Source: a bacterium
GTDB lineage: Bacteria > Bacteroidota > Ignavibacteria > UBA10030
NCBI GenBank assembly: GCA_043803945.1
Contig: JAZDJN010000027.1
Location: forward strand, 7,931 to 71,930
Length of the DNA: 64,000 nucleotides
Direction of reading: 5' to 3'
The notes under the pieces were generated by a model, which was not told where the DNA came from, did no database searches, and saw only the letters and a list, made by a program, of their open reading frames with translations. The position numbers and the translations under genes are program-made. Below, one piece after another: positions 2,613 to 64,000 of this stretch (position 1 is its first letter; each line of letters opens with the position of its first letter).

Positions 2613-2756
2613 CAGTGTTCCCAAAATGCTTCAGTTTGGGATCTGCTACGCGGAATTAACATGTAGCGTTTAATTGATCCCCCCGATATAAAGCATCCCG
2701 AAATAAAGCATCGGCACAGGTCGGGGCAAGCCGACAGAAGCACTCGGGGAACACTG
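2613..2756. repeat. MITE-like intergenic repeat, copy 1, with terminal inverted repeats CAGTGTTCCC / GGGAACACTG
   Basis: Directly visible TIRs and an internal hairpin 'cccaaaatgcttcagtttggg'. It is homologous to two tandem copies at 41300-41548. Confidence 0.6.
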
Positions 2757-2934: not shown

Positions 2935-3693
2935 TTGATGAGAACGATGATTTTCCGTTTTTCCCTCGATTTCATAATTCTCCTGATGTTTACTGCTTGC
3001 AGGGAAGGAGTAGTGTTGCCTCAGACCGTTGATGAGCTGTCGAATTCCACACGTGTGAATTCCACAGCGTTCCAGTTTGTCATCTACGGTGACGTCAGCA
3101 GCAGCCAGGTGTCGGGAGTCTATGAAGCATTGGTATCAAACAATGAGAGGATAAAAAAACATCTTCATGTAACCGACATGCCTCAGGTGAAAATCTCTCT
3201 CTGGTCGGAAGCTCAAAGCAGCGATTTCTACAGCCAGATGAAATCCCGAATCGGTCAGATCTACCCCGGAGCCACGGGCTACACTCCCAGTGCGAGAGAG
3301 ATCTGCCTGCTTTGGAATTCTTCCGCTCCCACTGGAGTAGTGCATGAATATGCTCATCTCGTATCGATTGCTCTCAGGCCGACGATTGGTAATAATCCCC
3401 GCTGGTTGTGGGAGGCAATAGCTCAGTATGAAGCGAGAATGTTCGACCATCCATCACGCTGGTCTTTAGAGCAACGAAAGTTTCCCGGCTTTTCAGCACT
3501 CAATCAGTTCAACTCGGAGTTACCTTATCGCTGGGGATATTATCTCGCGGCATTCATCCTTGAGCGCTGGGGGGATGACGGATATATTAATCTCATCCTG
3601 ACCAACGGAAATATTTCCAATTCGCTTGGCGCGACGGAGAAGGAATTTGGAATTCTCATGGAAGAGTATATCAAGCGGCTTGTGAATTCATGA
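2935..3693 (+). CDS. Peptidase MA-like (zincin, HExxH...E) lipoprotein
   Basis: Signal peptide plus lipobox (LLMFTAC). The motif 'VVHEYAHLV' is followed ~20 aa later by 'PRWLWEAIAQYEA', the HExxH-(n)-P.WL.EG.A.Y pattern of the Peptidase_MA_2-like family. Confidence 0.5.
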   Translation: MMRTMIFRFSLDFIILLMFTACREGVVLPQTVDELSNSTRVNSTAFQFVIYGDVSSSQVSGVYEALVSNNERIKKHLHVTDMPQVKISLWSEAQSSDFYSQMKSRIGQIYPGATGYTPSAREICLLWNSSAPTGVVHEYAHLVSIALRPTIGNNPRWLWEAIAQYEARMFDHPSRWSLEQRKFPGFSALNQFNSELPYRWGYYLAAFILERWGDDGYINLILTNGNISNSLGATEKEFGILMEEYIKRLVNS

Positions 3694-41252: not shown

Positions 41253-41299
41253 TTCCTCGCTTAATACCTACTGGTAGGAGTATTAATAACAGGGGAAAA

Positions 41300-41395
41300 A
41301 GTGATCCCAAAGTGACTTTGTTTGGGATCTGTAACGCGGAATCAATTTACACCGAATAGTAGATCCCCGATAAATACATTCGGGGAACACTAATG
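41300..41395. repeat. MITE-like repeat, copy 2
   Basis: 'agtgatcccaaagtgactttgtttgggatctgtaacgcggaat...cattcggggaacactaatgagttgg' is homologous to 2613-2756. Confidence 0.6.
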
Positions 41396-41420
41396 AGTTG
41401 GGAAACAACAAGCAAAGGAA

Positions 41421-41548
41421 AGTGATCCCAAAGTGACTCTATTTGGGATCTGCTAAATGGAAATGAATTGCACCGCATCGTAGATCCCCCACCTTCGCAT
41501 CGCTACGGTGGGCAGGCCGATAGAAGCATTCGGGAACACTAATGGGTG
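41421..41548. repeat. MITE-like repeat, copy 3, in tandem with copy 2
   Basis: 'agtgatcccaaagtgactctatttgggatctgctaaatgg...cattcgggaacactaatgggtgagg' is a near-identical start and end to copy 2. Confidence 0.6.
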
Positions 41549-41593
41549 AGGAACCAACAAGTAAAAAGCAGCAAGAAGTAAATTTACTTTTCT

Positions 41594-44226: not shown

Positions 44227-44565
44227 GGGGACTGGACTACACAGTCATCAGTAATTGAATTTATGTGATAAAGTTTTTTACTCATTCGAAGAAGAAAGAG
44301 CAACCGCGAAGAATGCCAATAGTCCAAGAATAGAATGAAAGTGTTTTCCTCATAATAGAAAAAGTCAGGCAATGTGTTACCTGACTTTTAGTACGCCCGA
44401 AGGGAGTCTCCGCCAGGCGGATGAGCCTCCGGCTCAGAGCCCCTAACACCCATTTTGATTAATGACCGAAATCGTACTAATGCTTAATTCGCGGTAATAA
44501 AAATCCCGCCTCCCAGCGGGATCTTTTCTTCTCACTTCTCACGTTTTTCTTCTTACCTTCTTTTG

Positions 44566-44639
44566 TACGCCCGAAGGGAGTCGAACCCCTAACCCTCAGC
44601 TCCGTAGGCTGATGCTCTATCCAGTTGAGCTACGGGCGC
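44566..44639 (-). tRNA. tRNA-Arg (anticodon ACG)
   Basis: The reverse complement folds as a cloverleaf: acceptor GCGCCCG/CGGGCGT, D-arm GCTC..GAGC, anticodon stem TCAGC/GCTGA with loop CTACGGA, and T-arm AGGGG-TTCGACT-CCCTT. There is no encoded CCA. Confidence 0.8.
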
Positions 44640-44755
44640 AAAGGAATATGTAAATGTGGAAATGAGTAAATGAAGGAATTGTAGCATTGAAAAGACGTTT
44701 CTCTTAATTCCTCAATTTCCTAATTCCCAAATTTTCACATTCTCACATTTCTATG

Positions 44756-44828
44756 TAGCCCTAACGGGATTCGAACCCGTATTTTGGCCTTGAGAGGGCC
44801 ACGTCCTAAACCCTTAGACGATAGGGCC
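44756..44828 (-). tRNA. tRNA-Glu (anticodon CTC)
   Basis: Reverse complement 'GGCCCTATCGTCTAAGGGTTTAGGACGTGGCCCTCTCAAGGCCAAAATACGGGTTCGAATCCCGTTAGGGCTA'. The anticodon loop is CTCTCAA and the T-loop is TTCGAAT. Confidence 0.75.
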
Positions 44829-44944
44829 AAGGTAAATAAGTGAATGTGAAAATGTGGAATTGAAAAACAGTTTCTTTCAATTTCTCAATGCCATATTCTA
44901 CATTCTCATATTCCCCCATTCTCATATTTCCATTGCTGCCCCGC

Positions 44945-48499: not shown

Positions 48500-51111
48500 A
48501 TGAACCATATCAAAGTCTTGACGTTACTTGCCGTATCGATGATGATCGTGCAGCTTTCAGCTTCCAACGGTGACCGTTCGATGAACATGAACCTGCACAC
48601 TCAATGGAGATTTAAACAGGAAGGAACCGATCGATGGTACTCTGCGGCTGTACCGGGGTGTGTCCATACCGACCTGATGCAAAACGGACTAATTCCAGAT
48701 CCATTTGTTGGAACGAACGAACGCGATCTCCAATGGATTGGTGAAAAGAATTGGATCTATGAGACAACATTCGGCATTCCAGCCGCATTCCTCCGACAGG
48801 ACCATGTCGAACTTATCTTCGAGGGATTGGATACGTATGCAGATGTTACCCTGAACGACAACACCATTCTCCATGCAACAAATATGTTTCGCACATGGCG
48901 AATTGAATGCAAAAGCCTTTTACGAGAGGGGCAGAATCGTTTGGCAATCCGATTCAAAAATGTGTTCGACGAAAATCTCCCTAAACATCGTTCTGCACCC
49001 TTCGAGCTGCAAGCCTTCGATAACAATGATCAGGCAGAGGCAAAGATTTCCATGCATTCCCGCAAAGCCCAGTTCCATTACGGATGGGATTGGGGGCCCC
49101 GGCTAATCACGTGCGGCGTTTGGCGTCCTGTGGCCCTTCAAGCGTGGAGTGGATTCAAGCTTAACCATGTGCATGTCCAGCAACAGAATGTCACAGAAGC
49201 TGGTGCTGATATCCTCTCTGTCATCGCCATCGACTCAGATCGGCCGCGGGAGGTTTCCATACTCATGACGATGGATGACCTCCAGCTTGTTACACAGCGT
49301 GTGAAGCTTCAACAGGGGAAAAATGTTATTCCTCTTACAGGGCATCTGGCCAATCCAAAACTCTGGTGGACGAATGGCTTAGGTGCTCAATACCTCTACT
49401 CGTATCGGCTTATCGTGAAGGATGATTCCGAATTGAGTGATGAGTATACCACATCCATCGGCATCCGTTCTCTGGAAATTGTTCGGGAGAAGGACACACA
49501 CGGTAGAAGCATGTATGTGAAACTGAATGGTGTACCGGTCTTTATGAAAGGGGCTAATTATATCCCGCAGGACAATTTTCAGAATCGGGTGACTCGGGAC
49601 CGTTGCGAACACATTGTTCGTTCTGCCGCAGAAGCGAATATGAACATGCTCCGGGTATGGGGCGGCGGTATTTACGAAGACGATCAATTCTATGAGTTCT
49701 GCGACCGGTACGGTCTCCTTGTGTGGCAGGAAATGATTTTTGCCTGTGCGATGTATCCTGCTGACGGTGACTTTCTGGAAAATGTGCGGCAAGAGGTGAT
49801 TGATAATGTAACCCGAATCCGCAACCATCCCTGTATCGCATTGTATTGCGGCAACAATGAGAATGAAGCTGCCTGGTTTCAGTGGGGATGGAAGCAGAAA
49901 TACGATACACGAACGCAAGAAATTTTTGAACGGAACGCAGAAAGGCTCTTCTATGAAGTAATCCCTTCGGCGCTCCGGGAAGCAGACTCGACACGCTATT
50001 ATCATCCCACTAGTCCGATTGCCGGAATCAAAAATACTCCATACAGCGAAGGTGATATCCACTATTGGGGTGTGTGGCATGGCAAAGAACCGTTCGAGAA
50101 TTTCACTTCCAACATTGCCCGCTTTGTGAGTGAATATGGATTTCAGTCCTACCCTGAACTCTCCACCGTTTCAAAATTCGCCCGGCCGGAAGATCGACAG
50201 CTTCATTCCGATGTGATGCTGTCTCATCAGCGTTGCATGGCGGATGCACGGCGTGACAAAGAGTATGGCAATCGCTTGATACAGACATACATGGATCGAT
50301 GGTACCGTACGCCGAAAGATTTTGAATCATATCTCTATGTCAGTCAGGTTCTTCAGGCTGAAGGAGTACAGGTAGCATTGGAGGCTCATCGCCGGGCAAT
50401 GCCATTTTGCATGGGAAGCTTATACTGGCAGATCGACGATTGCTGGCCGGTGGCATCATGGTCGAGTATCGATTATTACGGCCGCTGGCATCATGGTCGA
50501 GTATCGATTATTACGGCCGCTGGAAAGCACTCCACTATGCAGCAAAAAACTCTTATGCTCCTATTCTGGTTTCTCCAGCGATGTCGAAAGACAGTGTCAT
50601 CCTTATTCTAGTTTCAGATGCATTGAAAGCGTTTGAAGCGTTGCTCGATGTAACGGTGATGGATTTCAACGGCACTCGAATTTCACACCTTACGCTTCCC
50701 GTGACTGTACCGGCGAATAGCTCGGCGAAGATTCCTACCATCCCGAAACAGCAGCTTATCGGAGATGCAAACGAATCCCGATCTGTTATTCACCTGCAAT
50801 TACGACGGGGGCAGGAAACTCTCCACGAACGATACGCCTACTTCCGGCTGCCAAAGGAACTGGAACTACACAAGCCAACCCTGATGAGAGCCATTCAAAA
50901 AAATCTAACGGGATATACCATTGAGTTGGCCGCATCGACACTTGCGAAATCTGTCATGCTTGCCTGCGGTGACGATGCATGTTTCTTCAGCGATAATTAT
51001 TTTGACCTGGTGCCGGGAATTCAAAAGACTATAACGGTAACGACAACAATGAAACAGGATGAATTCGAAAAATCATTGAAGATTATCAGCTTGATCGATA
51101 GTTATCAGTAA
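48500..51111 (+). pseudogene. GH2 beta-mannosidase disrupted by a 35-bp tandem duplication (frameshift splits it into ORFs 48500..50611 and 50407..51111)
   Basis: The N-terminal 'WYSAAVPGCVHTDLMQNGLIPDPF' and 'LIFEGLDTYADVTLN' are typical of beta-mannosidases. The unit 'tggcatcatggtcgagtatcgattattacggccgc' occurs twice in tandem (50451-50485 and 50486-50520). Removing one copy restores the continuous frame '...CWPVASWSSIDYYGRWKALHYAAKN...' and a protein of ~860 aa. Confidence 0.75.
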
Positions 51112-53672: not shown

Positions 53673-55862
53673 ATGAACCTGGGTAAACATTTTTTCAACT
53701 TGCTTCTTGCACTTATCATTTCACAGGTATCATTTTCACAATCGAACCGGATCACCTATAACAATCAACGACTGTTTCTCAGCGGTGCTAATCTCGCATG
53801 GCTCAGTTTTGCGGGAGATATTGGACCGACACAGGCCAATTATGCAAAGTTCGGAGAAATACTTCTTATGATGCATGACAGCGGCGGGAATTCGATGCGT
53901 TGGTGGCTTCATACCAATGGCACTATCAGTCCGCAATTCAATGATTCGGGGTATGTTATTGGACCGGGAGATGGTACTCTTGATGATTTGAAGAAAGTGT
54001 TGGATCTCGCCTGGGAGCGAGAAATTGGATTGAAACTGTGTCTCTGGTCGTTTGACATGCTTCGCTCTTCCAATAATAGTACAGTTCTCAATCGAAACAG
54101 GCTGATGTTGAATGATACCAACTACACCCGCGCCTATATTAAGAATTGTCTCATTCCATTGGTCAATGCGCTGAAAGGGCATCCCGCGATCGTTGCATGG
54201 GAAATATTTAATGAACCAGAGGGCATGAGCAATGAATTTGGATGGAGCGAAATCCAGCACGTCCCCATGGCCTCTATTCAACGATTCGTTAATCTCTGTG
54301 CTGGAGCGATTCACCGTGCAGATCCGGCAGCTAAAGTGACGAATGGCTGCTGGGCGTTTCTTGCACTCACCGATGTGGCGACAACTTCCATCTCCTTGGG
54401 AAAGATTGGCATAGACCTCTCACAACTGGGTATTGCCGAGAGAGAGGATATGGAAAAACGGTTTACGGATAAATATGGGATAACGCTCACCGCGGAAGAA
54501 ATAGTGCAGCACTATCAACGCGCTGCTCTGCAAGCAAACTATAATTATTACTCCGACAGCCGTCTCATTGCTGCAGGTGGAGATGTTCAGGGAACACTCG
54601 ATTTCTACTCCGTGCATTATTATGATTGGGCAGGGACGTCTCTTTCTCCTTTCAGCCGGCCTGCACTGTTTTGGAATCTGGATAAGCCGATCGTCGTTGC
54701 TGAATTCCATATGAAAGATACATTCGGTGTTCCCAAACAGTATCTCTTTGAAGTCTTGTTCCAGAATGAATATGCAGGTGCCCTGCCATGGTCGTGGACG
54801 GATAACGCCGTCACGAAAGTTGAAGATATGCTGGCTGGAATGAAGTATATGTGGGATAATCATAAGAACGATGTGGATGTTCTCGGCATCGGGGGAGATT
54901 GGCCAATTGTAACGCTTACAGCTCCTGCTCCTGAAACAAAATTTGCCGACACTGCAAAAGTCGTCATTACAGCCGAGGCGTCGGATAAGGATGGTTCTGT
55001 AGCCCGGGTGGAGTTTTTTATCTCGGATACTGTGAGAATTGGAGAGGCCATAACACCGCCGTATACGATGACCTGGTCGAATTTGAAATCAGGATTATAC
55101 GTGATTACAGCAGCAGCGACCGATGACAAGGGTCACAAGCGGATCTCCAAGGGAGTTCAGATCCAGGTGGGTGCGCTTCAGATGACAAGACTGGAAGCCG
55201 AAGGTGCAATCCGATCTGGCACACCGACTGTTCGAAGCGATCCGACAGCAAGCCGTGGTTCCTATGTCACCATGCAGCAGACCGGCACTATTACATGGAC
55301 AATCCCCAGTGTGCCTAAAGATGGAGCTTATGAAATCGTGTTTCGATACAGATTATCTTATAATACACCAAAGAATCAGTATATCAATATCAATGGAGTA
55401 CGTATAACAGAACTGGCATTCACGGGAACAACGAATACATGGCTCGATAAATCATTAACGGTTAATCTTACTGCCGGGCAGAATATTGTACAAATGGAAT
55501 TATCCTGGGGATGGATGGATGTCGATTACCTCTCCGTCCCGGTCACATTCCTCACATCGGTGAAGAGCAACAATGAGCTTCCACTCTATTTTTCTCTTGA
55601 GCAGAATTACCCGAATCCGTTTAATGCAATGACAAATGTCGAATTCCGATTGCTGGTGAGGGCCAAGGTGAAACTGAGTGTGTACGATATCCTCTGCCGT
55701 GAAGTGGCAATACTGGCGCATAGCGACCTGGCGGCAGGAACCCATGCAGTACGGTGGGACGCTTCGAATTTCGCCAGCGGAGTTTACTTCTACAGACTCG
55801 AAGTACAAGATGGTTCACCGGCTGGTGTGATTCAGACAAGGAAAATGGTCCTGGCCAAATAG
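53673..55862 (+). CDS. Secreted clan GH-A (GH5-like) mannanase/glycanase with C-terminal beta-sandwich (CBM/Ig-like) domains and T9SS C-terminal sorting domain
   Basis: Signal peptide. The catalytic region carries 'LFLSGANLAW', 'SMRWWLHTNG', 'AWEIFNEPEG' and 'VVAEFHMKD'. The C-terminus 'EQNYPNPFNAMTNVEF...SGVYFYRL...RKMVLAK' is a T9SS CTD. Confidence 0.6.
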   Translation: MNLGKHFFNLLLALIISQVSFSQSNRITYNNQRLFLSGANLAWLSFAGDIGPTQANYAKFGEILLMMHDSGGNSMRWWLHTNGTISPQFNDSGYVIGPGDGTLDDLKKVLDLAWEREIGLKLCLWSFDMLRSSNNSTVLNRNRLMLNDTNYTRAYIKNCLIPLVNALKGHPAIVAWEIFNEPEGMSNEFGWSEIQHVPMASIQRFVNLCAGAIHRADPAAKVTNGCWAFLALTDVATTSISLGKIGIDLSQLGIAEREDMEKRFTDKYGITLTAEEIVQHYQRAALQANYNYYSDSRLIAAGGDVQGTLDFYSVHYYDWAGTSLSPFSRPALFWNLDKPIVVAEFHMKDTFGVPKQYLFEVLFQNEYAGALPWSWTDNAVTKVEDMLAGMKYMWDNHKNDVDVLGIGGDWPIVTLTAPAPETKFADTAKVVITAEASDKDGSVARVEFFISDTVRIGEAITPPYTMTWSNLKSGLYVITAAATDDKGHKRISKGVQIQVGALQMTRLEAEGAIRSGTPTVRSDPTASRGSYVTMQQTGTITWTIPSVPKDGAYEIVFRYRLSYNTPKNQYININGVRITELAFTGTTNTWLDKSLTVNLTAGQNIVQMELSWGWMDVDYLSVPVTFLTSVKSNNELPLYFSLEQNYPNPFNAMTNVEFRLLVRAKVKLSVYDILCREVAILAHSDLAAGTHAVRWDASNFASGVYFYRLEVQDGSPAGVIQTRKMVLAK

Positions 55863-55930: not shown

Positions 55931-58027
55931 TTGATTATAACAAAGGAATCAGCCGTGCAACCTTGCCGATTTTTTCTCTCTGCGGTATCATTGACAATAC
56001 TAACAGTGTCGAGTCTATGGTGCCAGCTTTCCAGCGACATTCGCTTGAATCAGATCGGGTTTTATCCCGCGATGCCAAAGATCGCAATTGTCCGCAATGT
56101 AAGTGCAGCGCCGTTCGCGATTGTATCAACGACAACGTTAGATACCGTCTTCCGCGGCACACTGAGTTCAGCGCAGACATGGCCCTATTCAAATGAGTCT
56201 GTAAGCCGTGCAGAGTTCACCGAATTGCAGACACCCGGCACTTATCGAATTGTGGTACCCGGCTTAGGAACATCGTACCTCTTCACGATTAAACCCCGCA
56301 TTCACCTGAATGTCGCGACCGCCGCGTTGAAGAGCTACTATTATCAGCGTGCATCGATGACGCTCGATGCTGCGTATGCGGGTTCCTGGGCGCGTGCTGC
56401 TGGGCATCCGGATAATAGTGTCCTGATTCATCAGTCGGCGGCAAGCGTGCAGCGTCCGGCAAACAGTACAATCTCCGCTCCTCGCGGATGGTATGATGCC
56501 GGTGATTATAACAAGTATATCGTCAATTCCGGAATATCGACATACACGATTCTTGCGGCGTACGAACACTATCCGGAATTCTGTGATCGACTGGACACAA
56601 ACATTCCTGAGAGCGGCAATGGCGTTCCGGATATACTCGATGAGGCGCTCTGGAACGTACGGTGGATGTTGGCCATGCAGGATCCGAATGATGGAGGAGT
56701 GTACGCCAAACTGACGAATGCGAACTTTGATGGTTTTATCATGCCCGCTGCTGCTACCACGCCGCGCTATGTCGTGAAAAAATCTACCGCTGCTGCATTA
56801 GATTTCGCTGCGGTAACGGCGCAGGCAGCACGGATCACAAAAAAATTTTCTGCTGCACTGCCGGGATTATCAGACTCTTGCTTGCAGGCATCGCTGAAGG
56901 CGTGGCAATGGGCAAGGAACAATCCAGCAGTGTATTATGATCAGGCGCAAATTAATGCTCAATATACTCCCGTAATCAATACGGGAGCATACGGTGATAA
57001 TAATGTCTCCGATGAATTTGCATGGGCGGCTGCAGAGTTATGTGTTACAACGGATCAGGATAGTTTTTTAACGGTGGCGAGCCCTCTCTCGGTCTCCTGG
57101 TTCAACGTCCCCGGATGGCCTGATGTTCGCACACTCGGACTGTACACACTCGCTCAGCATCGTAACACTCTGCCATCATCCATCGATACGAGTATTCTCG
57201 CAGTTCGATTGGTAACGCTGGCAAACATGCTTCGTAATGCTATGACAACTTCTGCCTACCGTGTCGTGATGGGCGCGCAAAGCTCTGATTTTGGATGGGG
57301 AAGTAATTCTGTGGCAGCAAATCAGGGAATGGTGCTCCTGATGGCGTTCAGGATGACAGGCGATACAAGCTATCTGCGCGCCGCCCTGAGCAATCTCGAT
57401 TACCTTCTCGGGAGAAATGGAACGACATTCTGTTTTGTTACCGGTCTTGGATCTCGCTCTCCATTGAATATTCATCATCGCCCCTCAGCTTCAGATGGTG
57501 TCCAGGCACCCGTGCCGGGATTATTAGCCGGAGGGCCGAATCCCAGAATGGAGGATAGTGTGAAGACCTATCCGTCATCGCTGCCCGCTCTGGCGTACAC
57601 CGATAATGTGAATTCCTATGCTTCGAATGAGATTTGTATCAACTGGAATGCACCCCTGGTATACCTCGCCATCGGAATAGAGGCGCACACGTCACCGAAT
57701 GGTTTACCGACCTCGTTGAATCCTGATCCCTCGCATCAGCCGATTCCCGGGTCATACGGACTGTTCCAGAATTATCCCAATCCATTCAATCCCTCAACGA
57801 CGATCAGGTATCAGATACCGGCGACAGGACATGTGACGTTGAAAGTGTTCGACACGCTTGGTTGTGAAGTGACAACCTTGATTGATGAAGTGAAAAGCGA
57901 AGGTTCCTATTCAGTGGTATTTGATGGTGCACATCTTTCGAGCGGTGTCTACTTTGGACGGTTGATGGCACAATCCCGGGATGGTAATCCTGTCGTTGAG
58001 ACAAGAAAGCTTGTCTTGACAAAGTGA
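55931..58027 (+). CDS. GH9-family glycoside hydrolase with N-terminal CelD-like Ig domain and T9SS C-terminal sorting domain
   Basis: 'IRLNQIGFYPAMPKIAIV' is the Ig-like N-domain. 'GWYDAGDYNKYIVNSG' matches the GH9 DAGD motif. 'DEFAWAAAEL' is present. The CTD is 'FQNYPNPFNPSTTIRY...SGVYFGRL...RKLVLTK'. Confidence 0.7.
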   Translation: MIITKESAVQPCRFFLSAVSLTILTVSSLWCQLSSDIRLNQIGFYPAMPKIAIVRNVSAAPFAIVSTTTLDTVFRGTLSSAQTWPYSNESVSRAEFTELQTPGTYRIVVPGLGTSYLFTIKPRIHLNVATAALKSYYYQRASMTLDAAYAGSWARAAGHPDNSVLIHQSAASVQRPANSTISAPRGWYDAGDYNKYIVNSGISTYTILAAYEHYPEFCDRLDTNIPESGNGVPDILDEALWNVRWMLAMQDPNDGGVYAKLTNANFDGFIMPAAATTPRYVVKKSTAAALDFAAVTAQAARITKKFSAALPGLSDSCLQASLKAWQWARNNPAVYYDQAQINAQYTPVINTGAYGDNNVSDEFAWAAAELCVTTDQDSFLTVASPLSVSWFNVPGWPDVRTLGLYTLAQHRNTLPSSIDTSILAVRLVTLANMLRNAMTTSAYRVVMGAQSSDFGWGSNSVAANQGMVLLMAFRMTGDTSYLRAALSNLDYLLGRNGTTFCFVTGLGSRSPLNIHHRPSASDGVQAPVPGLLAGGPNPRMEDSVKTYPSSLPALAYTDNVNSYASNEICINWNAPLVYLAIGIEAHTSPNGLPTSLNPDPSHQPIPGSYGLFQNYPNPFNPSTTIRYQIPATGHVTLKVFDTLGCEVTTLIDEVKSEGSYSVVFDGAHLSSGVYFGRLMAQSRDGNPVVETRKLVLTK

Positions 58028-58204
58028 CTTACGTGTCCCGCTAGAGCCAAGATTGAGAGTCTGAGATTGATACTCTGAACCACCAAGTTCACCAAAATGT
58101 AAAATATTTACTCAGCGTGATATTAACAGTCAAGGTGATTTCCATCTCAGCAGAATGCCGCAGGACCTGATTAATCAATTGTAGTTCTCATGCGGAGTAA
58201 ATTC

Positions 58205-58311
58205 CCCCTTTCGTAAAGGGGGTCCGGGGGATTTGGTTTTTGCTGCGTTAATCTGAGAAGTATTTACAGCTTCCAAAGAAATCCCCCAAATCCCCCTTTG
58301 GCAAAGGGGGA
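58205..58311. repeat. G5/C5 palindromic hairpin cluster between convergent genes (probable bidirectional terminator or REP-like element)
   Basis: There are two hairpins, 'ccccctttcgtaaaggggg' and 'ccccctttggcaaaggggg', in direct orientation ~70 bp apart, flanked by the inverted pair 'gggggatttgg' / 'ccaaatccccc'. Confidence 0.5.
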
Positions 58312-58473: not shown

Positions 58474-60294
58474 TCAATCCGGATCGTACCCGATTTCCAA
58501 TCTTGAGAGTTGAATCCCATCCATCAAATGAATTTTTATGAAGCGATGATCCGGTGGAATATTTACAATTGAATACCGCATCGGGATAAAGGCTTTGTAT
58601 TCATTTTTGAATGGCTCGAATATCTCGTATTTCACCGACAGCGAGGAAGGTGTTTCGGGCGAAGCGCCGGAAAAAAATGTTATGCTGCTGTCCCGATTCG
58701 TTGTGGTGATGAAGACGTCGAGTTGAAGTACGGTTGCCTCTTCCGACAGGCGATAGAGAATGTAGTCGCTTCGTTTTCCTTCCAGGCGGTATTGATCTTC
58801 CTTGGCCTTGGCCGCATCCTTATTACGGATGAAGCTTACTCCAGAGGATTTTTCCACCATCAATTTATCATTCTCGAATTCATCGATAAGAATCCGATAT
58901 GGTGCTTCGATGGGTCCTGCAACGGCTGAGGCCTCCGATATCCCGGAAGTATTCTTTGCTCGAATACGGTACGAGTAACTGACACCAGGTTCTGCCGTGG
59001 TATCCGAAAAAAGAGGACGATATCTGACGTTTGCATCGCTGGCGTTGCTGTCGATAACGCTCCAGCGTGAAAAGAAGAGGAGGAACCGATCCTTCCGTTC
59101 AACAAGGTATGATGAGGCGCCTGTCGATCCTTGCCAGGAAATTTTATAGGGAGTCGTTATGGGCAGTATCGTTGGTGCCGCGGGTATCGGGAGAGGCGCA
59201 ACTGGAAGTCCATTAATAGCATAAGCCTTTTCTGTGAAGAGTTGAATGATCTTTTGCTCCTCCCATCGCTGTCCAGATTCAAAGCCGGGCCATCGGTAGG
59301 CATCTGTGTGGTAGTAATAGCCTCCATCACGATTATGCCCGCGCATACTCCACACCATGATTCCGGAAATACCTGATGAAATAACAGCATCGAGCACCAG
59401 GCGCATGCTATCCGCGGGCATGAAGCCAAACTCCCCGACAAAGTACGGTTTCTTCCCCTTTGCTTTTTCCCGCGCTGTGAGCATTAAAGTTATGGTTTGA
59501 TACGCAGGCCGATAATGATGTGTCGAGAGAATATCGATGTTGGGATCGGCAAGAGCTTCGTCCAAGATAGACTGGCTATGAGTTCCTTCGATGACCAGAT
59601 GGTTGGTATCGAGACTTTTGATATAAGCAGCAATTTCTCTTGTCCAAGCGAAGGTCGGTACATCAAGTTCGTTGCCGGTTTCCCATCCGAGAAGAGCTTT
59701 ATCGTCTTTGAAGGGGAGACCGGTATAGGTGTTGACACGATTGACCATGAAGGCAATCGTCTTCTTGAAATCGGCAATCACAACGGAGTCCGTCCAAAAT
59801 GCTTCACGCGGTTTACCGCGTAAACGCCCATAGTCGGTAACACCGCCCCACCACCACCAGTTATCGATCAGAGGGATAATAACACGTACGCCTACCTCAT
59901 TGGCAATCTGGAGAATTTTGTCGTACGCTTTGAACGCTTCTTCGTTAAACTGCCCCGGCCCTTCTACGTGCCTGATGATGCGTGGATCATCGTTCGCTTT
60001 TCGGATCGAAGGAGTATAGAGGCGAGTGACCATTCCGCCCGACTGCTTGATGGCGTTTAGTGCATCACGAATCTCGAATTCGTTCGCCACCCGCCATGGA
60101 TTCGGATCGTCAAATGCCTGATGGTCTTCAATGTAGTGCAGGTTCGGAATATTGTATGAAATGAACCGGAGCTCCCAATCTCCATCCATTAACTTGTCGC
60201 CTGCTGCCGTGATGAAGTGACTGAATTGTCCATTCACAGATTGAATGAGCGTGAAAACGCAGCAGAGTAGAAAGGTGACGAGATTACGGTTCAT
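58474..60294 (-). CDS. GH5-family glycoside hydrolase (mannanase/glucanase-like) with C-terminal accessory beta-sandwich domains
   Basis: Signal peptide at the probable start MNRNLVTFLLCCVF (60294); the ORF is open to 60411. 'LLGWETGNELD' carries the acid/base motif NEL. 'KPYFVGEFGF' is the nucleophile region. 'IDNWWWWGG' is present. Confidence 0.65.
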   Translation of the reverse strand: MNRNLVTFLLCCVFTLIQSVNGQFSHFITAAGDKLMDGDWELRFISYNIPNLHYIEDHQAFDDPNPWRVANEFEIRDALNAIKQSGGMVTRLYTPSIRKANDDPRIIRHVEGPGQFNEEAFKAYDKILQIANEVGVRVIIPLIDNWWWWGGVTDYGRLRGKPREAFWTDSVVIADFKKTIAFMVNRVNTYTGLPFKDDKALLGWETGNELDVPTFAWTREIAAYIKSLDTNHLVIEGTHSQSILDEALADPNIDILSTHHYRPAYQTITLMLTAREKAKGKKPYFVGEFGFMPADSMRLVLDAVISSGISGIMVWSMRGHNRDGGYYYHTDAYRWPGFESGQRWEEQKIIQLFTEKAYAINGLPVAPLPIPAAPTILPITTPYKISWQGSTGASSYLVERKDRFLLFFSRWSVIDSNASDANVRYRPLFSDTTAEPGVSYSYRIRAKNTSGISEASAVAGPIEAPYRILIDEFENDKLMVEKSSGVSFIRNKDAAKAKEDQYRLEGKRSDYILYRLSEEATVLQLDVFITTTNRDSSITFFSGASPETPSSLSVKYEIFEPFKNEYKAFIPMRYSIVNIPPDHRFIKIHLMDGIQLSRLEIGYDPD

Positions 60295-60568
60295 TGAGAT
60301 GGCTCTCGATAAGTGATTACGAGTAAGTGCTCTGCGCACATGGAGCGCAGACCATATCTTGAGTAATGTACTGTACAAGAAAGAAACAAAGTAGCAGAAT
60401 TCTCTTCTCAAGGTTGTTTCGGAATGAAGCTTACTCTGGAAATTATAATCAGAAAGGTAACGTTCTTGTAGTGTGGTTAATAAAAATCGCCCAATCTCCC
60501 TCTCTCCTTGTATTCACTCCCCCAATTACTTTCCTCTCAATCTCCTACACTCATACCCTCTCACACTC

Positions 60569-63686: not shown

Positions 63687-64000
63687 AGATGAGTTCTTTC
63701 CATCAATGGAATAGTATTTCCCCGGTTTCAGGCATAAAGGATGCCAAACCTACAAAGGCATATTATGCTGTCATTCCCCAATAATACTATGCCTGATTTA
63801 TCAGCATAATAATCTTTTATGGAATTGATAAAAAATCGGGTTATGATAGCGAGTTACCGGGAAAAAGTGAGTGCAAAATGTGAAATTCTGCACCCATTTA
63901 ATGGCAAAGACTTTGCTCATTCTCTAATGCCTAAACTCTCAAATGTAACTCATTCAGGTGTGGAGGGTATATGTTCCTGTCGAGCGCCAGGATTTCAAGA

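Follow-up and report, generated by a model that had tools for sequence, protein, structure and literature searches.

REPINs consist of two inverted repetitive extragenic palindromic (REP) sequences that together form a hairpin, with a spacer that differs in length and sequence and is always hairpin-forming, and ordered tandem repeats are the commonest of their higher-order arrangements (PMC3337134). One class carries conserved A/T runs at its ends, which were read as co-option as terminators (PMC3337134, Bertels and Rainey), and the REPs of active REPIN populations are 94–98% identical (PMC3337134, Table 2). Elements of the REP type, where mobile, move via single-stranded hairpins that are recognised by RAYT/TnpA-REP, leaving no duplications, and the REPs of Escherichia coli bear a GTAG tetranucleotide at the 5' foot of the hairpin (PMC3479197). 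RAYTs also occur outside Proteobacteria, Chlorobia included (PMC5581495). Here we analyse a family of three homologous non-coding repeat units in a 64,000-nucleotide (nt) stretch of contig JAZDJN010000027.1 (positions 7,931 to 71,930), the whole of which is referred to as the window. An earlier note on the same DNA had described the units as having the properties of miniature inverted-repeat transposable elements (MITEs), or of REP-like elements mobilised in trans. Tentatively, we read them as old copies, three in number, of a palindromic repeat that is non-coding, specific to its lineage and of the REP-doublet (REPIN/BIME) type.

Copies, boundaries and internal anatomy

The three units, all on the + strand, are distributed over two loci separated by 38.7 kb, which for the window amounts to 3 units per 64 kb, and were first delimited by sequence reading at 2613-2756 (copy 1), 41300-41395 (copy 2) and 41421-41548 (copy 3). 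The homology reported for these three intervals is borne out by pairwise BLASTN, with E-values of 1e-13 for copies 2 and 3, 5e-9 for copies 1 and 3, and 2e-6 for copies 1 and 2, and the family ranks first among the direct-repeat families of the window. The pattern GATCCCAAAGTGN6TTTGGGATCTG, with up to 3 mismatches allowed, is found at exactly these three sites, against 0.00 expected. No fourth copy was detected in the window, either with nhmmer (--max) or with the covariance model of the repeat (R1, filters off). Several weak matches were rejected as copies: 54642-54784 sits within a coding glycoside-hydrolase open reading frame (ORF), 44639-44763 and 44825-44920 are tRNA spacers that are only rod-like and AT-rich, and 63852-63912, near the window end, contains only short hairpin matches.

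Copies 2 and 3 are arranged head to tail with a start-to-start period of 121 nt and are 73% identical, and either of them is 68–72% identical to copy 1; the pair was not reported by Tandem Repeats Finder. The roughly equal distances among the three copies show that the tandem pair did not arise by recent duplication. This argues against a purely local origin, in which a regulatory or terminator hairpin would have been duplicated in tandem and carried once to a second site by recombination, as does the location of copy 1, 38.7 kb off in an unrelated gene context. Such a history would agree with the three visible copies, two of them adjacent, with the lack of relatives in the public collections scanned, and with a place between convergent genes that suits a terminator; were three units per 64 kb representative of the whole genome, the copies would be far more numerous, and we consider this explanation very improbable.

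The ends of copy 1, CAGTGTTCCC (2613-2622) and GGGAACACTG (2747-2756), are perfect inverted repeats, as had been noticed, and the repeat really extends to 12 bp (ATCAGTGTTCCC / GGGAACACTGAT, 2611-2622 / 2747-2758). Copies 2 and 3 both begin with AGTGATCCC (at 41300 and 41421) and end with GGGGAACACT and GGGAACACT, respectively, each followed by AATG, that is, GGG(G)AACACT-AATG; the slight divergence attributed to these ends corresponds to 9/10 complementary positions. The homology runs past the inverted repeats on both sides and at both loci, for ~13 nt upstream (AACAAGnAAAnnA) and ~15 nt downstream (RATGRGTKRRGGAAM). The left flank reads AACAAGAAAAAAT in copy 1, AACAGGGGAAAA in copy 2 and AACAAGCAAAGGAA in copy 3, and the right flank GATGGGTGGAGGAAA, AATGAGTTGGGAAAC and AATGGGTGAGGAACC in the same order. 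The inverted repeats are therefore subterminal, and the description of the units as bounded by terminal inverted repeats (TIRs) does not hold. The whole homologous unit spans 2600-2769 in copy 1, with an A-rich left flank (2600-2612), a palindromic core (2613-2756) and a purine-rich right flank (2757-2769). Copy 2, the minimal unit without an insert, spans 41286-41405 including both flanks (core 41300-41391), and copy 3 spans 41407-41554 (core 41421-41540), so that the cores measure 92–144 bp. The covariance model scores copy 2 at 134 bits, copy 3 at 75 bits and copy 1 at 57 bits over 2600-2718, a 50-nt insert dividing the match in the latter.

Between the tandem copies, the right and left flanks join into a 29-nt linker (AATGAGTTGGGAAACAACAAGCAAAGGAA, 41392-41420), which is 30/34 identical to the sequence after copy 3 (p<1/300). 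A partial third linker past copy 3 (AACAAGTAAAAAGCAG, 41556-41571, + strand) agrees at 14/16 positions with the left flank of copy 1 extended 3 nt into its inverted repeat (p about 0.05), where the homology stops.

These boundaries bear directly on the classical MITE, which would derive by internal deletion from an insertion sequence (IS) of the DDE-transposase kind, have 10–12-bp TIRs and be moved in trans by cut and paste. The 12-bp perfect inverted repeat of copy 1 and the 9/10 match in copies 2 and 3, the size of 92–144 bp, the non-coding, intergenic placement at two separate loci and the length variants arising through internal insertion or deletion would all suit such an element, and so would an AAATT pentamer that occurs on either side of copy 1, 7–8 nt beyond the conserved flank, although this pair is expected by chance because it is an AT-rich 5-mer among about 100 possible offsets. 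Against it stand the flank homology described above and the regular linker that the tandem pair has in common. Moreover, no target-site duplication is demonstrable at the copies in the window: the AT/AT at copy 1 only extends the palindrome by 2 bp, and the AA/AA of copies 2 and 3 lies within the conserved flank. Neither a cognate IS with matching ends nor an isolated end or a transposase was found in the 64-kb window. A strict MITE is accordingly improbable, and of the two interpretations offered at the outset the REP-like one agrees much better with the anatomy of the units. Before an intergenic repeat with inverted-repeat ends is called a MITE, it is prudent to check where its homology ends.

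Inside the core, the first 84 nt align without gaps in the three copies, and in each of them a spacer of precisely 30 nt separates TTTGGGATCTG from GATCCCC, although copy 1 is rearranged there. Two interior motifs that had been given as conserved are so only in part: 'gatctgYtaMgcggaat' is exact in copy 1, copy 2 being off at one position and copy 3 reading GATCTGCTAAATGGAAA, and 'tagatcccc' is present in copies 2 and 3, with TTGATCCCC in copy 1. The length variation resides between GATCCCC and the 3' arm, where the insert amounts to 0 nt in copy 2, 29 nt in copy 3 (41488-41516) and 50 nt in copy 1 (2681-2730). Both inserts hold an extra stem, CCCCGA (2681-2686) / TCGGGG (2721-2726) in copy 1 and CCCACC (41488-41493) / GGTGGG (41507-41512) in copy 3, in which pairing is preserved via changes in both arms. 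The copy 1 insert also contains degenerate internal duplicates of the right (3')-arm module, GATATAAAGCATCCCG and AAATAAAGCATCGG.

Half-sites, folding and structural constraint

Each unit is a doublet of two inverted half-sites of ~32 nt with the head AGTGWTCCC-MRA-RTG. The half-sites are themselves imperfectly palindromic and enclose a loop of 9 nt, the stem being GATCCCAAA/TTTGGGATC on the left and TCCCCGA/TCGGGGA on the right. The left half-site of copy 1 (2614-2645, + strand) reads AGTGTTCCCAAA-ATGCTTCAG-TTTGGGATCTG, and its hairpin pairs GTTCCCAAA (2617-2625) with TTTGGGATC (2635-2643) across the 9-nt loop; the right half-site (2724-2755, - strand) is AGTGTTCCCCGAGTGCTTCTGTCGGCTTGCCC, in which CCGA (2731-2734) pairs with TCGG (2744-2747), again across 9 nt. 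The copy 2 hairpins are GATCCCAAA-GTGACTTTG-TTTGGGATC on the left (41303-41329, 9 bp, 9-nt loop) and TCCCCGA-TAAATACAT-TCGGGGA on the right (41364-41386, 7 bp, 9-nt loop), both given on the + strand. In all copies the left hairpin retains its 9 bp and 9-nt loop, with one mismatch in copy 1. Exactly five instances of the 15-nt head AGTGWTCCCMRARTG are present in the window, all of them located where copies have their outer ends and on opposite strands, and the sixth outer end, the right end of copy 3, departs from it by a 1-nt deletion. The hairpin pattern TCCCMRA-N9-TYKGGGA has four matches, found in the copies only, against 0.29 expected.

A degenerate head with 2 mismatches, AGTCATCTCAAAGTG, is located at 2798-2812, 40 nt 3' of copy 1, within the intergenic region that also holds this copy. 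A single half-site in decay could explain it, although at 2 mismatches the head has four matches in the window, compared with 1.6 expected for all matches with up to 2 mismatches.

The left half of copy 2 and the reverse complement of its right half are identical at 22/32 positions, with 4 more being G-U-compatible. The stems of the two halves differ (CCCAAA/TTTGGG vs CCCCGA/TCGGGG), and these differences are compensated within each local hairpin, at the cost of pairs in the long rod that the whole unit can form; the local hairpins, and not the rod alone, have therefore been kept. In RNA structure prediction all three copies fold into this rod, with energies of −56.1 kcal/mol for copy 1 (z = −4.85), −33.9 kcal/mol for copy 2 (z = −4.63) and −41.4 kcal/mol for copy 3 (z = −2.0). 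The rod is built of a basal helix, which corresponds to the former 'TIRs', a second helix (AGUGACUCUAU/AUAGAAGCAUU) and a third one (GGGAUCUG/UAGAUCCC), with an extra stem-loop in copies 1 and 3. With DNA energy parameters, copies 2 and 3 form separate local hairpins, whereas RNA parameters yield one rod. Because four segments of the unit carry the same GGGATC/GATCCC box, the pairings 1:2 + 3:4 and 1:4 + 2:3 are both possible, and the unit folds either as small hairpins or as one rod.

Pairing was tested on a 120-column alignment from which the inserts were left out, comprising 81 pair cells. Standard pairs occupy 93.8% of these cells, as opposed to 34–48% when the 3' partners are slid by 1–3 columns, and two pairs have changed on both sides, columns 33-88 (C-G/U-A) and 35-86 (A-U/G-C/G-U). 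Invariant columns make up 45/54 of the paired and 25/66 of the unpaired positions (Fisher p = 4e-7). The structure of the repeat units is thus under constraint. An identity of 68–73%, combined with substitutions that avoid the stems and fall mostly in unpaired columns, indicates old copies whose structure was maintained, unlike the neutral decay that would follow a recent MITE burst.

On the - strand, a U-rich tract follows every unit, corresponding to the reverse complement of the left flank, which is conserved and A-rich. In copy 1 it reads UUUUUUCUUGUUUU, directly past the 12-bp basal helix, and includes UUUUUU; in copy 2 the tract UUUUUCCCC starts two bases past the 9-bp hairpin, with AC and then UUUUU (ACUUUUUCCCC after the hairpin). 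Judged from its sequence, the hairpin with its U-tract looks like an intrinsic terminator on this strand. Canonical terminators are used by the host, for example GCCCGTCTATGGACGGGCTTTTTTTT after an aldolase gene.

A REP doublet might have reached this state as follows. The units would have spread via a trans-acting enzyme able to recognise single-stranded hairpins, a RAYT-like Y1 transposase whose gene would lie elsewhere in the genome, and local tandem amplification would have added to the spread. As a single strand, whether DNA at a replication fork or RNA, a unit would adopt separate small hairpins or one long rod, the 'TIRs' being the outermost helix of the latter. Today, the units would be transcribed within 3' untranslated regions (3'-UTRs): in the - orientation the hairpin and U-tract would end transcription, for instance at copy 3 that of the permease gene lying 45 nt upstream, and in the + orientation the units may provide 3' end structures for the pcm and pectate-lyase-like mRNAs.

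The units resemble the REPIN/BIME elements of Pseudomonas and enterobacteria in several features. They are extragenic, consist of two short, inverted, imperfect palindromes that together form a long hairpin, have a variable spacer that keeps its hairpin (inserts of 0, 29 and 50 nt), occur in ordered tandem with a regular linker, lack a target-site duplication, and carry at one end an A/T run that gives them a terminator-like shape. They differ in their 9-nt loops, in half-sites of ~32 nt that match no described REP consensus, in an A-run present on one side only, and in a host that probably belongs to the Fibrobacterota-Chlorobiota-Bacteroidota (FCB) group and is not a proteobacterium; the RAYTs of Chlorobia are relevant here because the type IX secretion system (T9SS) sorting domains encoded in the window point to that group.

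A number of observations count against a REP doublet. Three copies at 68–73% identity contrast with the 94–98% of active REPIN populations, and neither a RAYT nor any other transposase is encoded among the ORFs of at least 130 aa in the 64-kb window. REPIN-RAYT systems typically number tens to hundreds of copies in a genome, their REP cores being highly conserved, and include a cognate RAYT, a Y1/HUH transposase that is usually single-copy and has REPs on its flanks. GTAG is found beside the right half only, where in copies 2 and 3 (GTAGATCCCC) it overlaps the stem by 1 nt and in copy 1 it is 9 nt away, and the left half carries GCAG or ACAG in its place. The right hairpin, of 7 bp in copy 2, has only 4 bp in copies 1 and 3. 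The terminator-like shape is likewise uneven: the copy 3 tract UUUCCUUUGCUUGUUGUUU contains only UUUCCUUUG, a poor U-tract, copy 1 has no - strand gene immediately upstream to terminate, and the sites were not flagged in a consensus terminator scan, which missed them because their 9-nt loops exceed its 8-nt limit. All the family statistics rest on three related sequences, and with so few a shuffle control of the pairing test is uninformative, 288/500 shuffles attaining the observed value. Weighing both sides, we lean, with some reserve, to a family that works like a REP doublet and belongs to the general kind of small palindromic intergenic repeats, as distinct from a proven REPIN-RAYT system.

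In the ERIC and Correia (NEMIS) families, the TIRs are at the true ends, and a TA duplication accompanies Correia elements and the ERICs of Yersinia. The present units share with these families the form of an imperfect palindrome of 100–150 bp in transcribed intergenic regions, internal indels at fixed points, and folding into long RNA hairpins able to affect mRNA ends; they depart from them in having subterminal inverted repeats and no visible duplication, and show no sequence similarity or Rfam match to them.

Species-specific palindromic repeats are common in bacterial genomes, and in itself the finding is ordinary. REPIN/BIME-like elements have so far been studied almost only in Proteobacteria, and if the units are REP doublets, such elements extend to an uncultured lineage, probably of the FCB group, and offer a compact case in which local hairpins and a long rod are both preserved by compensatory change. 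Repeats of this sort mark the 3' ends of transcription units, can break assemblies of metagenome-assembled genomes (MAGs) and could be used as strain markers.

Strand preference, coding capacity and a possible small RNA

The same - strand features allow a different explanation, a family of structured small RNAs transcribed from that strand, either as independent genes or derived from 3'-UTRs. Each RNA would begin with a conserved, CU-rich single-stranded leader (UUUCCUCCACCCAUC in copy 1, GUUUCCCAACUCAUU in copy 2, GGUUCCUCACCCAUU in copy 3) complementary to the Shine-Dalgarno-like GGAGG, continue through internal stem-loops and finish with the hairpin GAUCCCAAA-N9-UUUGGGAUC and the U-tract as an intrinsic terminator, the four GGGAUC/GAUCCC segments permitting two alternative folds. 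A hairpin and U-rich tract at the - strand 3' end of all copies, the conservation of the opposite flank, stems far more conserved than loops, compensatory pairs, and copies that are old yet retained would all be expected of such RNAs. Copy 3, moreover, starts 45 nt past the permease stop codon on the - strand, the place of a 3'-UTR-derived RNA.

Several results point the other way. Columns 37-84 and 46-75 are G-U in all three copies, and columns 27-94 are G-U in copies 2 and 3 and an A-C mismatch in copy 1; the G-U positions of the + strand turn into A-C on the - strand, which favours the + strand. The RNA folding energy of copy 2 agrees with this (−33.9 kcal/mol on the + strand vs −28.6 kcal/mol on the - strand), those of copies 1 and 3 being about equal on the two strands. 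A promoter scan found no σ70-like promoter ahead of the units on either strand, and inspection by eye of the - strand yielded only a mediocre TTGCGG-N18-TAAATT, at copy 1 alone. The U-tract of copy 3 is weak, as mentioned, and outside searches (below) gave neither an Rfam match nor a homologue in the other genomes and metagenomes scanned, which is unusual for a functional small RNA and usual for a genome-specific repeat. We regard a small-RNA family as unlikely, if the most serious competitor of the REP doublet; were it true, it would represent a new regulatory RNA.

Paralogous small RNAs in a tandem-plus-dispersed arrangement are known, LhrC1-5 and PrrF1/2 being examples, and this precedent speaks for the small-RNA explanation. 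The units resemble them in their length of ~100–160 nt, in the combination of tandem copies with one distant copy, in a pyrimidine-rich single-stranded segment and in the hairpin with U-tract at one end (- strand). They are unlike them in that no promoters were detected, the C-rich boxes are within stems and not in loops, no conservation was found beyond this genome, and the wobble pairs favour the opposite strand.

A protein-coding role was rejected on both strands, and the units are non-coding as proposed. On the + strand, a 15-codon ORF common to copies 1 and 2 is shortened to 7 codons in copy 3, and on the - strand ORFs of 32–43 codons diverge past 5 residues through a 1-nt deletion. The indels measure 1, 29 and 50 nt, the inserts are not multiples of three, and no ORF is conserved on either strand.

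Known RNA classes were sought with Rfam, which at gathering thresholds matched nothing in the window except three tRNAs and, at E<=10, gave only spurious matches at both loci; known ribozymes, riboswitches, 6S RNA and Y RNA were rejected on these scans. A CUGAUG beside copy 1 does not represent a hammerhead core and lacks conservation in copies 2 and 3. A cis-regulatory leader or attenuator was dismissed since at the locus of copies 2 and 3 no gene follows the units on either strand. Retrons, diversity-generating retroelements, type III toxin-antitoxin repeats and integrons were set aside for want of a reverse transcriptase, integrase or toxin gene nearby, and the core sites of integron attC are likewise absent. 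Clustering of GATC as a methylation signal was also discarded, GATC not being rare in the window (388 observed vs 246 expected).

Scans with exact-core patterns covered 185,579 species genomes, the IMG/VR viral contigs and the JGI metagenomes, and returned one match in the species genomes (a Corynebacterium MAG), five in IMG/VR and five in the JGI metagenomes. As none of them extends past the pattern when scored with a hidden Markov model or a covariance model, all are chance hairpins. In ~70 kb around pcm from four of the nearest relatives, neither a related element nor conserved synteny was found.

A more radical proposal is that the units are not selfish repeats, and that they constitute a new class of structured RNA (or single-stranded DNA) switch, restricted to this lineage and selected at several loci. 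The four interchangeable GGGAUC/GAUCCC segments could then alternate between two hairpins, the terminator form, and one rod, and the switch could, for example, be a regulatory small RNA that is encoded in multiple copies and has an anti-Shine-Dalgarno leader. We think this doubtful. Less radically, the REP-doublet reading may mean that a REPIN-RAYT-like system is seen here for the first time in a lineage without a described one.

Genomic setting and neighbouring features

All three copies are intergenic, as had been stated. Copy 1 lies 112 nt downstream of the stop codon of a gene for a Pel9A-like beta-helix protein that bears a T9SS sorting tail, and 180 nt upstream of a + strand ORF equipped with promoter-like and Shine-Dalgarno-like signals of its own. 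Copies 2 and 3 occupy the gap between the convergent genes pcm (+) and an amino-acid permease (-), copy 2 beginning 48 nt past the pcm stop codon and copy 3 being 45 nt from that of the permease. The pcm protein is 100% identical to NCBI MFH0989520.1, its nearest other relatives being at most 73% identical.

Otherwise, the window consists of ordinary chromosomal DNA, that of a polysaccharide degrader. It encodes glycoside hydrolases, several proteins with T9SS sorting tails and trehalose synthesis genes, and a TonB-dependent receptor-type gene adjoins those for an extracytoplasmic function (ECF) sigma factor and FecR. No transposase, integrase or reverse transcriptase was found among the window ORFs of at least 130 aa. 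The host is an uncultured bacterium, and the T9SS C-terminal sorting domains, of which the window encodes several, presumably place it in the FCB group.

Other features were observed around copy 1. Just 5' of it, at 2508-2586, a small terminator-like hairpin (CCTTCGGAAGGTTTT) is followed by a long GC-rich hairpin (GCTGGGAGGGAGCTCCCGCC...GCTCCCGACCAGC). On its 3' side, TTCGTCACTAAATACC (2779-2794) resembles TTCCTCGCTTAATACC (41253-41268), located 5' of copy 2, at 13/16 positions (shuffle p about 0.05); the two are on opposite sides of their units and the resemblance is possibly due to chance. Further on, the region 2815-2925 contains three CTTGAC boxes and a promoter-like TTGACG-N19-TATACT, then GAGAGGA and ATG, ahead of the ORF at 2938-3693. 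These signals suggest that the host uses σ70-type promoters and Shine-Dalgarno sequences.

A second palindromic doublet, unrelated to the family, is found at 58203-58311 between the convergent genes of a GH9 (55931-58027, +) and a GH5-like (58474-60411, -) protein. It consists of a longer pairing, GGGGGATTT/AAATCCCCC, with a small hairpin on either side, the two hairpins (CCCCCTTTCGTAAAGGGGG and CCCCCTTTGGCAAAGGGGG) being nearly identical. The doublet may represent a further class of REP-like repeat or else a terminator that acts in both directions.

Two features belong to the Arg-Glu-Gln tRNA cluster on the - strand. The AT-rich spacers that flank tRNA-Glu (44640-44754 and 44829-44934) repeat each other in inverted orientation (24 nt, 83%) and each is internally rod-like, which accounts for their weak false matches with the covariance model of the repeat. 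The 3' end of tRNA-Arg(ACG), TACGCCCGAAGGGAGTC, is repeated directly over 22 nt at 44387-44408 and 44561-44582, 174 nt apart and with 95% identity; integration or excision at the tRNA gene could have left this duplication as a scar.

Finally, a 35-nt tandem duplication (50445-50514, 97% identical) splits a GH2 beta-mannosidase-like gene into two overlapping ORFs, 48500-50611 and 50407-51111. In-silico removal of one 35-nt copy restores a single ORF of 858 aa ending at 51111, and the split gene is either a frameshifted pseudogene or an assembly artefact.

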